The position numbers and the translations under genes are program-made. A stretch of DNA of 64,000 nucleotides, taken from positions 7,440,001 through 7,504,000 of the forward strand of contig CM022670.1 in NCBI GenBank assembly GCA_012295275.1, written 5' to 3'. The notes under the pieces are model-generated. The model had not been told where the DNA came from. It did no database searches and worked only from the letters and a program-made list of their open reading frames with translations. Shown here piece by piece: positions 189-58,900 of the stretch. Position 1 is the first letter of the stretch; every line of letters starts with the position of its first letter. This DNA is from Chrysomallon squamiferum (lineage: Eukaryota > Animalia > Mollusca).

Positions 189-3100
189 GTTGTGGTAACT
201 CTTGACAAATCCGCTGATTTCTCTAATGTGATAATTGATTCCACTGGGGCAGAGACAACGGCGTCTCGAAATCAACAAGAAACTATCAGGGTTAGTTCGT
301 CGTCTCTCTTTCTCTCTCTCTCTAAGTTTCTTTCTCTCTCAATGTATCTCTCTCTCTCTCTCTCTCTCGCTCTCTCTCTTTCTTTGTCTCTGTCTCTCGC
401 TCTCTGTGTATATCTGTCTGTCTCTCTCTCTGTATGTAGATAGTCTTTGTCTTTGTTTCTCTCTAAGTTTTCTCTCTCTCTCTCTCTCTCTCTCTCTCTC
501 TCTCTCTCTCTCTCTCTCTCTCTCTCTCTCTCTCTCTCTCTCTCTCTGTCAATGTTACTGTATCTCTTCTTATCTTGATTGTTTGTTTATTTACTTTCAA
601 TTTCAGGTGAAAGCAGGAGATGCAAGAAGCGTGTATTTCCCGATCATTCCATCACGTATTGGATACATAGACATACAGGTTTCTGGACGGACAAGAATAG
701 CTGCAGACGCTGTTAGACGACAACTTCTTGTAGAGGTATACACAAGAGTATAAACTGGGATTTTCAACAATTTAGACAGATTATATATGTAGATAGTCAG
801 ACAAAATGAAAGAGTGGAACGAATATTTAACCTGAAGAAAATCTTTGGAAAAGTATTTTAATTAAGTTTTATTTATTTCAAGCCTGAGGGTCTTCCAATG
901 GAGTACAACAGACCAGTTCTTATCGACTTGAAGACTGCAAAGAGTTTTTCTAAGACGGTCAGCATCACCTTCCCTCCTAACGTAGTTGACGGATCTCAGA
1001 GAGTGAAAATCTCCGCCATTGGTGAGTGAGAAACAGAAATTACTGAACAGCTGAAGTGTTTAGAATGCAACAGAAGACACATTGAACGATACATAATAAG
1101 TGATAAACGTTGTTTATAAGACAAACGAGTTATTTAAGTATTTGAAAAATAATACTAAAAGTAATACACGCGTTTCTTGTTTGTGATCAAAACTTTATTG
1201 TTCTCATCCCTCCACATCTTTCGAGCCGCTCTGAAAAATACCGAAGTCTTGAAACTAGAATAACTAGAACACTAAAAATAAAATAAAAAAAAAAAAAAAA
1301 ATTAAATATTAAAAACCCCCACCAAAAACTGTTAAGTTTGTAATAATAATAATTTTTTTCTTTTTCTTTCAGGTGATTTAATGGGCTCCAGCATCAGCGG
1401 ACTAGAAAACTTGTTAAAAATGCCTTACGGCTGTGGAGAACAAAACATGCTGAACTTCGCACCTACAGTTTTCGTAGTAAATTACTTGAAGGAACTCAAC
1501 CAGTTGGATGGCAGCATCCTAAGCAAAGCCATTGGATTTATGGAAATAGGTTTGAGTTATTTGTTGAATGCAGTTTCAGCGGTTGTTAACTACTGATAAA
1601 TGATGTAATATGTATGTCTGTTACTTTATTACAGTAGTCCAAAGAATGAATGTGAACATATTTAAAACATAATGAGATGTATAGGAGATATTACTGTATC
1701 ACAATGTACTGGATGTCATCTTTTTATTGTAGAATACTGAATTTGATATTTTAATGAAATATTTGGAAACCACCAGTTTAAAATGAATATTTTACCACCA
1801 TCAGAAACCATAATTTAAACAGTAATATTTTTTTATCATTTATTACTGTCACCATCACCATGACCATCATTTTATATCTCTCTCTCTGTCTCTTTCTACA
1901 TATATATATTAATTTATTTTAATTTATTTATTTCAGGGTATCAGCGAGAACTGACTTATCAACACAGAGATGGTTCTTTCAGTGCTTTTGGTGACAGTGA
2001 TCCATCTGGCAGTATGTGGTAAGTAAAAGTTGTCTGTTTCTGATTTCTTAATAGATATGTCTCAATGGATTAGCATCCATAGAAGAGACAGCTGACCCCT
2101 CAGTGGCTGCAATTGCTGACAATGTTGTATGTAGGTACGTTTTCAAACTGATTATAAGTATCTTGTCTTCAGAATCAAAATAGGAATTCGCACATATGTT
2201 TATGCATCATCTAAATATGACCAGTAAACTTTGCCACAACCCATCAAACCTTTTTATGTTTCTTTTTTGGAGACTTTGCGATTATAGGGAAAATATTAAA
2301 AATAAAAATAAAATTGTTATATTAATAACGAGACCCAGTAACTATAATGCTAAAATATTTGTATTTTAACAATTATAAATATTGTACTAATGTGTAGAGG
2401 TAAATAATTTGCCAGGTTGACAGCTTTTGTTGTGAAGACTTTCCATCAAGCGAAACCTCACATTTTCATCGACGATAAACTTCTTGTTCGAGCAATCAAA
2501 TGGATGATAGATCATCAAGACAAGAAAACCGGATCTTTCCCTGAACCTGGCCGTGTTATACACAAAGCTATGCAGGTAGGAAAATTTAACTTTGATCAAT
2601 ATATATAGATATATATATAAAAACACTGAAAATTTATTATTATTGTTATTATTATTATTATTATTATTGTTATTGTTATTTTCTATTTATTTATTTATTT
2701 ATTATTTTAGGGTGGTTCTTCATCTGGTGTATCTCTGACTGCGTTTGTACTCATTGCTCTTCTGGAGAATGACAACATTGATCCTGTAAGTAAAACTTAA
2801 TATTTATATTAATCTCTTTCCTTTTGAGTATTCACTTTAATATCGGTTTTAGAATACAAATGTGAATTCAAAAATAAATGTTTATATAACTATATATATA
2901 TCTATAATATATTTCTTTGTTTTTATTTAAATGTACTATTTTATGCCATTTATTTGTAGGATGTTAAGGATAAAGGTAAAAAACAAAATTGTTTTTGTTA
3001 TAGAATTTTATCATTTTATAATGTGCTTTTTGGTGATATTTAACTTTGAGAATATAAATTTATAAAAACATTTTATTTATGCAAATTTATTTCTCTGTGT

Positions 3101-55900: not shown

Positions 55901-58900
55901 CTGAGGGTCTTCCAATGGAGTACAACAGACCAGTTCTTATCGACTTGAAGACTGCAAAGAGTTTTTTTAAGACGGTCAGCATCACCTTCCCTCCTAACGT
56001 AGTTGACGGATCTCAGAGAGTGAAAATCTCCGCCATTGGTGAGTGAGAAAGAGAAATTACTGAACAGCTGAAGTGATTAGAGCCAGCGTGGACTTAACAG
56101 AGAACATAGTTTGTTAGATAAACGATGAACTCAGTTTATAAGTTAAACGAGTCATTAATGTAATTGAGAAATAATACTAAAAGTAATACACAGTAAATGA
56201 TGTTCAAAGAGATGTTCAAGGGTGCAGTTAAAAGTGAATGACGTGTGTTCGATAGCTTAAAGACTGACGAAATTTCGTAACATCTATCACTAAGTGAATT
56301 TAGTAACATCTATCACTAAATGGTCAGAACTCTGTAGTTTTCAGACCTCCGTCTCTTTCAAGCCGTTTTGAAAAATACTGATGTCTTAAAACTAAAGCTA
56401 AAACTAAAAAATAAAAATGAAAAAAAAAAAAAAAAAAAAAAAAATAATAATAATAATAATAATAATAATAATAATAATAATAATAATAATAATAATAATA
56501 ATAAAATAAATTTAAAAAAAAAAAAAAAAAAAATAAATAAATAAAAAATAAATAAATAAATAAAACAAAAAACAAAAGGAAGAAAATATTTATAAAAGTT
56601 ACTTTTCTAATAAAATATATTCTAAAAAAAAATTAAAATTAAATATTAAAAAAAAAAAAAAAAAAACAGTTAAGCTTGTAATAATAATAAAAAATTATTT
56701 CTTTCAGGTGATTTAATGGGCTCCAGCATCAGCGGACTAGAAAACTTGTTAAGAATGCCTCACGGCTGTGGAGAACAAATCATGCTGAACTTCGCACCTG
56801 CAGTTTTCGTAGTAAATTACTTGAAGGAACTCAACCAGTTGGATGGCAGCATCCTAAGCAAAGCCATTGGATTTATGGAATCAGGTTTGTGTTATTTCTT
56901 GAATACAGTTTCAGCTGTTGTTAACTGCTGATAGGTGATGTGATATGTATGTGTTTTTCTGATCGTTTCCTTTTCTTTATTACAGTAGTCAAAAGAATGA
57001 ATGTGAACATATTTAAAACATAATGAGATGTATAGGAGATACATTTATCACTATTATTCTGAACATAAAATATGGGCGTCATTTTTTTATTGTAGAATAC
57101 TGATTTTGATATTTTAATAAAAGAAATATCTGGAAAGCGTGGAAAGCGTTTTACAGTTAAAATAAATATTGAATTTACTAAAATCCATTAGAAAAGATCT
57201 GATTAGTAAATCAGCATTAATTTAAACAGTGATCTTTTTATTATTATCACTTCTACGACTACTGCCTACTTCTGTCACCATTACGTCTCCGTCTATTAAT
57301 ACTGCTACTGCGACTACTACGATTACCTCTATTAAGGCTTCCACGACTACTGCAACTACAACTTCAGCTATTTTTTTTCTCTCTCTCTCTCTCTCTCTCT
57401 CTCTCTCTCTCTCTCTCTCTCTCTCTCTCTCTCTCTCTCTCTCTCTCTCTCTCTCTCTCTCTCTCTCTCCATATATTTATTTATTTATTTTATTTTATTT
57501 TTTTAGGCTATCAGCGAGAATTGACTTATCAACACAAAGATGGTTCTTTCAGTGCTTTTGGTGAAAGTGATCGATCTGGCAGTATGTGGTAAGTAAAAGT
57601 TGTCTGTTTCTGAGTTCTTAATAGACATGTCTCAATGTATTATCATATATAGTAGAGACAGCTGACCCCTCAGTGGTTGCAGTTGCTCACTCTACTGACA
57701 ATATTGTATGTATTTACGTTTTATTTACCTTTACAAATCGGAATTTCTTTTTATGCAAACTGATTTCAAGTATCTTGTCTTCAGAATTAAAATACGAATT
57801 CCCGTGCATGTCTGTGCGTGATCTGAATATGACCAGGAAACTTTGTCAGAACCCATCAAACTTTTTTATGTTGCTATTTTGAAGACTTCACAATTATATG
57901 GATAAGACATGAAGACTATCTATCTCTTTCAAAATATTAAAAATCAAAATAAAATTGTTATATTAATAATGAGAACACTGATTCAATAAGTACAATGGTA
58001 AAATATAATATTTATATTAATACCTCTAAATATGGTAATAATGTGTAGAGTAAATAATTTGACAGGTTGACAGCTTTTGTTGTGAAGACTTTCCATCAAG
58101 CCAAACCTCACATTTTCATCGACGATAAAGTCCTTGTTCGAGCAATCAAATGGATGATAGATCATCAAGACAACAAAACCGGATCTTTCCCTGAACCTGG
58201 CCGTATTCTAGACAAAGCTATGCAGGTACGAAAATTTATATATATAACGAAACCATGCGACCATTAATCAAAATCAAATATTCTTGTCTATATATATGAA
58301 AATCAGAAAACTGATATTGTTATTGTTATTATTATTATTGTTGTTGTTGTTGTTGTTGTTGTTGTTGTTATTTTATTTTCTACTGTTTATTCATTTATTT
58401 ATTTATTTATTTATATAGGGTGGTTCTTCATCTGGTGTATCTTTGACTGCGTTTGTACTCATTGCTCTTCTGGAGAATGACAACATTGATCCTGTAAGTA
58501 AAACATAATATTTATATTAATCTCTTTCATTTTGAGTATTCACTTTAATACCGGTTTTAGAATACAAATGTAAATTTTAAAATAACTGTTTATTATATAT
58601 ATAATTTATTTCTTCGAGATTATTTTTATTTAAATTATTTATTTTTGCACCCTTTATTTGTGGGATGTTAAGTGTAAAGAAAAAAAGAAAATTGTTTTTA
58701 TTATATACAATTTTATCATTTTGTATATTTTGTTGCTTATAGAATTACTTTATAGTGTGTGTACATTTTGGTTTACGTGATATTTCACTTTGTGTATGTA
58801 AATTCAAAAATAAATTTTTGTTATTCAGATTTATTTCTTTGTGGTCGTTTTGGTGATATTTAGAGTATTTGTTCTTTATAACTGTGTTTAGAAAATTCAG

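Follow-up and report, generated by a model that had tools for sequence, protein, structure and literature searches.

The window analysed here is a 64,000-nt stretch of Chrysomallon squamiferum contig CM022670.1, to which all coordinates below refer. It contains three tandem genes for thioester-containing proteins (TEPs), designated A, B and C, all on the + strand, which were recognized by comparing the window with itself and by tblastn with mollusc homologues. The full-length gene consists of 37 exons, and all three copies keep the thioester motif GCGEQ. Gene B extends from 11570 to 32858 and gene C from 37913 to 63620. Both begin with a conserved ATG exon below a conserved TATA box (ATG at 11570 and 37913, respectively), and both encode about 1420 residues when each of two breaks in the frame is read as X. 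Gene A (189–7724) is represented by exons 22–37, with its 5′ part lying beyond the window start, and its frame is open over exons 23–36. The residue equivalent to the catalytic histidine of complement C4B is His in A and Asp in both B and C.

In each copy GCGEQ is encoded two exons before the catalytic residue and 115 residues upstream of it. The motif of A (exon 25, 1429–1443) is followed by NMLNF, that of B (25230–25244) by NMAIL, which is seen in the assembly only, and that of C (56764–56778) by IMLNF. The catalytic residue is encoded in exon 27, which spans 2416–2575 in A, 27104–27263 in B and 58066–58225 in C. An earlier interpretation of this DNA, made from its letters alone and referred to here as the sequence-only reading, had assigned the codon CAC at 2561–2563 to A (RVIH), and GAC at 27249–27251 and 58211–58213 to B (HIHD) and C (RILD), respectively. 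All three codons are in place, each followed by KAMQ and a GT donor, and a single base change separates CAC from GAC. The exon number fits once the ATG exon and a 26-nt micro-exon present in the gene model are counted, and the description of the rest of the exon as almost identical is roughly right, A and C differing at 7 of 160 bases and A and B at 15 of 160.

The sequence-only reading had equated this residue with position 1106 of human C4 and would have been given up had the two not aligned; they do align. Over 52 residues, exon 27 of A matches 1078–1129 of the 1663-residue C3 chain, which places its His on residue 1126. A profile of nine exon-27 sequences ends at 1129 of the 1744-residue C4-A and C4-B chains, which gives residue 1125; both numbers are derived from alignment ranges and assume no gap in the last four columns. 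Residue 1125 is presumably 1106 in the mature numbering, with an offset of 19 residues. Published C4 numbering agrees with this (PMC4753731, PMC7927756). In human CD109 the residue aligned with the His of A is also His, and in A2M it is Asn1088.

Across the 603 residues encoded by exons 23–36, A and B are 94.0% identical, A and C 90.4%, and B and C 90.0%. Among the copies the proportion of synonymous differences (pS) over these codons is 0.051–0.064 and the ratio of the nonsynonymous proportion to it (pN/pS) is 0.59–0.82, with long invariant stretches. The differences comprise 120 of the 1809 coding bases, 6 of which fall in the 12 bases of the four catalytic-loop codons. This is the densest cluster of differences among the copies (binomial probability 5.5e-5 for that window and 0.021 when every in-frame window of 12 nt is considered). 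In the protein, 75 of the 603 columns vary, and the catalytic loop is the only place with four variable residues in succession; taken by itself this residue run is not significant, as chance would give one somewhere with P ~0.14. Next in density among the distinct windows come the four codons directly after GCGEQ (25245–25256 in B), mostly owing to changes in B, where NMAIL replaces the NMLNF of A and IMLNF of C. Both halves of the reactive site may thus co-vary.

Short-read contigs from 5 of the 14 listed sequencing runs were compared with the window, three of DNA (X1, X2 and X3) and two of RNA (X8 and X10); contig depth was not taken as a measure of copy number. The Asp codons are found in DNA contigs of two studies, the substitution C2561G occurring in three contigs of X1 and four of X2. 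The codon change that gives C its Leu (A2558C) is not among the matches listed. The B-type IHD form is likewise present in contigs of X1 and X2, where the aligner writes it as an insertion after 2557 together with a deletion at 2561, and one B-type X2 contig continues into sequence identical to intron 27 of B. X1 or X2 may itself be the source of the assembly. A variant, T1504C, occurs in none of A, B or C, and X1 contains at least four forms of intron 26, which suggests that further copies or alleles exist.

The predicted proteins have the domain order of the TEP (alpha-2-macroglobulin) superfamily. Exon 2 is signal-peptide-like. Exon 19 (22025–22169 in B, 52450–52597 in C) encodes a hypervariable, bait-like region that would be protease-sensitive; no other exon differs as much between B and C, the 5′ half of the B exon being unalignable with that of C. 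The macroglobulin (MG)/bait/A2M, thioester (TED) and receptor-binding domains occur in order, with 6 of 7 tested exons of C scoring above the Pfam cut-off for PF07703, PF00207, PF07678 or PF07677, and the exons are colinear with the homologues P0003 and P0011. The motifs SGMAV and VYDYY are retained in B and C. Exon 36 encodes a C-terminal cysteine cluster. The gene likely ends with exon 37, which adds two residues before the stop (predicted at 7716–7724 in A, 32850–32858 in B and 63612–63620 in C) and has an acceptor and a stop that are conserved in all three copies. By inspection of the predicted protein there is no glycosylphosphatidylinositol (GPI) or membrane tail.

The best solved-structure matches are CD109, at the top, and A2M, not C3 or C4. 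The named homologues are mollusc CD109-like or TEP proteins, including BgTEP4 of Biomphalaria and a scallop TEP, with at most 75% identity in exon 27; exon 27 of B, used as a homologue query, found no close relative (best 69%). The closest relatives are thus of the iTEP/CD109 type, and the cysteine cluster occurs without a C345C domain. A GPI-anchored CD109 proper does not fit, the predicted protein ending a few residues past its last cysteine. Complement C4 does not fit either: C4 has an anaphylatoxin domain, tetra-Arg sites, a C345C domain and a length of about 1740 residues, whereas the predicted proteins are of about 1420 residues without a tetrabasic site, and the exon map leaves no room for anaphylatoxin or C345C domains. 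Judged by this predicted architecture, A, B and C are iTEP-type proteins and not C3 or C4 and, as the cysteine cluster is not followed by a membrane tail, they are likely to be secreted.

Published work describes what the catalytic residue does in better known relatives. The His gives rise to an acyl-imidazole intermediate, through which hydroxyls can react (PMC9156758). In C4B, His1125 catalyses ester formation, whereas C4A reacts with amines and forms amides (PMC4753731, PMC7927756). The H1084N variant of A2ML1 loses reactivity towards glycerol and keeps that towards glycine (PMC7864068). By analogy, we lean towards a reading in which one copy of the array keeps the catalytic His and two carry Asp, the Asp copies having lost His-catalysed ester formation so that they would attach mainly to amines, while the His copy would attach to hydroxyls as well as amines. 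The proteins would be secreted, and cleavage in the variable exon-19 region would expose the thioester. In A, the His would then attack the thioester to give an acyl-imidazole that is resolved by hydroxyls. In B and C this step would be missing and amines would attack directly, an effect of the loss of His and not of a special role for Asp or for the Leu that precedes it in C. The divergence of the bait exon further suggests that different proteases may activate the copies. An opsonin role has been described for TEPs of mosquito and snail (PMC12568711), and by the same analogy A, B and C may be opsonins that differ in target chemistry.

The chemistry could also hold in proteins with another task. 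A, B and C might act as monomeric protease inhibitors of the A2ML1/CD109 kind that differ in their baits, not as surface opsonins; this is compatible with the target chemistry proposed above but seems to us somewhat unlikely. The CD109 and A2M structure matches and the position of exon 19 as the most divergent exon between B and C speak for such a role, as does the conjugation of proteases by A2ML1 through the homologous His (PMC7864068). The cysteine cluster without a membrane tail is, however, as described for iTEPs (PMC7016707, PMC2935394), the relatives include BgTEP4 and the scallop TEP, and the mosquito and snail proteins have been described as opsonins.

Several points weigh against the proposed difference in target chemistry. 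The N1088H variant of A2M gained little hydroxyl conjugation and was harmed in thioester formation, and wild-type A2M can form esters, so the His rule is not absolute (PMC7864068). No measurement of nucleophile preference for an invertebrate TEP was found in the available parts of the literature. As assembled, moreover, B and C each contain two frameshifting indels upstream of the thioester exon, which the sequence-only reading had overlooked. In B, exon 14 (19071–19140) has 70 nt compared with 63 in C through several small insertions, and exon 22 (23764–23864) has 101 nt instead of 102, one base short beside an A run. In C, exon 10 (46458–46558) has 101 nt instead of 100, with one extra base in an A run, and exon 13 (48576–48673) has 98 nt instead of 99, one base short among short T/C runs, the C-type contigs ending before the lesion. 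If real, these frameshifts would end B at residue 486 and C at residue 276, before the thioester, and of the four only that in exon 14 of B has been set against reads. The contigs covering that exon may represent sister copies, and rare variants are lost from contigs. At the RNA level, the one X8 contig spliced across exons 25–28 (1340–2630) carries His, and no Asp transcript was seen in the two RNA runs, exon 27 being uncovered in X10 and exons 13–14 of B in X8; such missing cover is no evidence of silence. Lastly, a pN/pS of 0.6–0.8 also fits relaxed constraint.

Taken together, the two frameshifts in each of B and C, the His-type sequence of the sole exon-27 RNA contig and the pN/pS values could mean that B and C are young pseudogenes, in which His-to-Asp is a by-product of relaxed selection and only His copies supply a working protein. 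We regard this as unlikely. When the breaks are read as X there is no in-frame stop in the 1418 codons of B or the 1419 of C, and canonical AG/GT borders are present at all 35 exons checked in each, so neither copy shows a nonsense codon or a broken splice site. In three of the four lesions one base is affected, in or next to a homopolymer run. The remaining one, in exon 14 of B, is unsupported by contigs of three studies: every covering contig of X1, X2 and X3 is without base 19098 and without one base at 19077–19082, although X1 and X2 do contain exon 27 of the B type. On the exon-14 stretch of B the records at least 99% alike number 2 of 366, 2 of 167 and 2 of 251, whereas the stretch of A has 44 of 203 and 39 of 130, which points to poor polishing around exon 14; between 18640 and 19230 the window differs from all covering contigs of the three runs at 18714, 18728 and 19098. 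Since the one frameshift set against reads is unsupported, the frameshifts in B and C are likely to be assembly errors. The differences between copies, furthermore, cluster at functional loops, and B and C share the same Asp codon. The absence of stops, the canonical splice sites, the TATA box and ATG, the SGMAV and VYDYY motifs, and a pN/pS accompanied by invariant stretches are all signs that B and C may be alive. Working TEPs with Asp are also on record in other animals, in BgTEP1 of Biomphalaria and in Drosophila TEP2 (PMC2935394). A His copy is transcribed, and the X8 contig represents a further allele or paralogue: it differs from A at five bases, two of which (1504 and 2527) are found in none of A, B or C.

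All three copies could also be functional while the loop changes mainly tune thioester stability at the TED–MG8 interface, or allow escape from pathogen inhibitors, with little change in chemistry. All four loop residues vary and B differs as well just after GCGEQ, in Anopheles TEP1 the catalytic loop belongs to the protecting interface and is hypervariable from allele to allele (PMC3464232), and N1088H mainly harmed thioester formation in A2M (PMC7864068). Removal of the His nevertheless abolishes hydroxyl reactivity in C4 and A2ML1 (PMC4753731, PMC7864068), and the replacements in relatives are mostly Asn and Asp, the residues of the amine-preferring A2M and C4A, which makes this explanation improbable. 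Finally, the assembler might have tandemized a single locus, A, B and C being in part its alleles and His/Asp a polymorphism. This view could draw on the local inaccuracy of the assembly and a synonymous divergence of only 5–6%, but is very improbable indeed given three distinct forms with rearranged introns and unalignable bait exons, and single runs that hold A-, B- and C-like exon 27 together with at least four intron-26 variants.

The target-chemistry reading set out above gains context from related proteins, in which the same replacement recurs. Of 89 distinct homologue TEDs, 76 have His at the catalytic position, 4 have Asp, 4 Ser and 3 Asn, and 2 have a gap there. A quick maximum-likelihood tree was built from 80 rows, these being 92 distinct TEDs minus 12 His rows more than 95% identical to another; the rows are mostly mollusc TEPs, BgTEP1 is absent, and there is no C3 or C4 row, so that subfamily placement is outside the scope of the tree. 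A, B and C form one clade (Shimodaira–Hasegawa-like approximate likelihood ratio test, SH-aLRT, 100) that is placed among relatives with His. Five changes are required to account for the six Asp rows, all forced by starred branches, which lie in the C. squamiferum array, in Solemya (P0027), Dreissena (P0082) and Physella (P0120), and in P0087, a full-length Asp protein with four members on Logan contigs of 4.4–4.5 kb. Among these mostly mollusc TEPs the His/Asp swap thus appears to be recurrent. Because A, B and C form their own clade among His-bearing relatives, the statement of the sequence-only reading that Asp evolved independently holds both for vertebrate C4 and for the other Asp rows of the tree. 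Physella also contains a clade of Ser-type paralogues.

The further statement that the array repeats the very IH/LD switch of C4 stands for A, which reads IH, and for C, which reads LD, but not for B, which reads HD. When exon 27 of C was used as query, the best 150 of 293 representatives (155 stretches) comprised 90 with His, 28 with Asn and 15 with Asp; the count comes from an ungapped reading that starts at a conserved Phe, it is biased towards Asp by the query, and insertions put a few His rows out of register. Leu precedes Asp in 4 of these 15, and the LD of C would therefore be one of the usual outcomes, with no particular correspondence to C4A. Leu at position −1 was considered as a marker of the Asp type and rejected, as it is found in none of the 4 other Asp TEDs and in 8 of 76 His TEDs. 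A catalytic role for the His of B at −1 or −3 was likewise rejected as unsupported; the residue at −3 is His in 2 of the 4 other Asp TEDs compared with 2 of 76 His TEDs, which is a hint only.

The novelty implied for an invertebrate His/Asp switch does not survive comparison with the literature. In 2010 Asp was reported in place of the catalytic His in a Biomphalaria BgTEP, together with the functional Drosophila TEP2, which has Asp too (PMC2935394), and in 2020 BgTEP1 (Asp) was contrasted with two His paralogues, BgTEP2 and BgTEP4, in a comparison that names C4A explicitly (PMC7016707). The B. glabrata proteins resemble the array as mollusc iTEP paralogues with GCGEQ, a C-terminal cysteine stretch, 35–43 exons and either His or Asp (PMC7016707, PMC2935394), and alternative copies of a bait-like exon are described in BgTEP2 (PMC7016707). 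They differ in being separately named and presumably older paralogues, whereas the array copies are adjacent, 90–94% identical and in a clade apart from the Biomphalaria rows of the tree. In the literature covered, which leaves out most subscription journals, no report was found of a young tandem mollusc His/Asp array or of a count of independent origins. The array is best read as a young, testable instance of a known and recurrent switch.

Human C4A and C4B are likewise tandem young paralogues whose differences are concentrated in the same loop, with PCPVLD and LSPVIH, respectively, at 1101–1106 (PMC7927756, PMC4753731); C reads LD as does C4A and A reads IH as does C4B. The human proteins, however, have anaphylatoxin and C345C domains, 1744 residues and copies that are 99% identical, whereas the array is without those domains, encodes about 1420 residues, differs in the bait-like exon as well and includes an HD copy. 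The chemistry of human C4 has been measured, while that of the array is deduced from its genes. Fish and chicken C4 genes of the H and D types and carp C3 variants without His show the His/Asp contrast repeatedly after duplication, but belong to the complement subfamily and to old duplications (PMC7768046). Drosophila TEP2 (PMC2935394) and the S and R alleles of Anopheles TEP1 (PMC3464232) share a replaced catalytic residue or a hypervariable catalytic loop; these are insect proteins, and the TEP1 variation is allelic. A closer parallel is a pair of Dreissena polymorpha CD109-like proteins, P0275 (His, NVIHKD) and P0082 (Asp, HVIDKY), which are 93% identical over 1447 residues and have a divergent bait-like region, but lie on different contigs and represent an independent origin of Asp.

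Near-identical His and Asp paralogues provide a natural control pair for the thioester rule from C3, C4 and A2ML1 in invertebrate TEPs, for which the rule was found, in the available parts of the literature, to be assumed and not measured. If at least five separate origins of Asp among mollusc TEPs are real, His-to-Asp would be a recurrent route by which animals without antibodies widen their covalent target range. With the switch already described, the array is for a TEP specialist a neat case and not a surprise.

The history of the array can be sketched in part. The branching order of A, B and C is not settled by the tree, outgroup-polarized residues including five shared by A and B and four shared by B and C; three of the latter four sit in the TED core. 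Exon sites at which C alone differs make up 8 of 34 in exons 25–28 and 43 of 73 in exons 29–36 (Fisher P 0.0008, with the boundary picked after looking), and this patchy distribution suggests exchange between copies. The Asp of B and C may have arisen once in their common ancestor, or been moved by conversion, or A may have regained His from another copy. The young array likely evolves by duplication and patchy exchange of sequence between its copies. A broader scheme, which we offer tentatively and with slightly more doubt than belief, is that molluscan iTEPs repeatedly regenerate isotype pairs like C4A/C4B, one copy in each lineage-specific duplication trading His for Asp (or Asn or Ser) and gaining a new bait. 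The array would then be a mosaic resembling RCCX, caught mid-process, in which exchange homogenizes most exons while the bait, the catalytic loop and the stretch just behind the thioester are kept distinct by selection.

The array also contains repeats of several kinds. Intron 25 of B, alone among the copies, holds about 88 copies of a 12-bp unit (82% matches) at 25771–26823; this run of units, which several reading frames cross without a stop to give low-complexity repeats of Pro/Ser or His/Thr, is probably a minisatellite. Intron 1 of C contains a tandem duplication of about 2.2 kb (38417–42198, 91% identical), each unit of which carries a 21/63-bp minisatellite (39599–40272 and 41777–42196). 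A dispersed repeat of 300–700 bp, likely a short mobile element, occurs in both orientations at 12160–12515, 35755–36456, 38822–39480 and 41000–41658, its copies being 70–80% alike.

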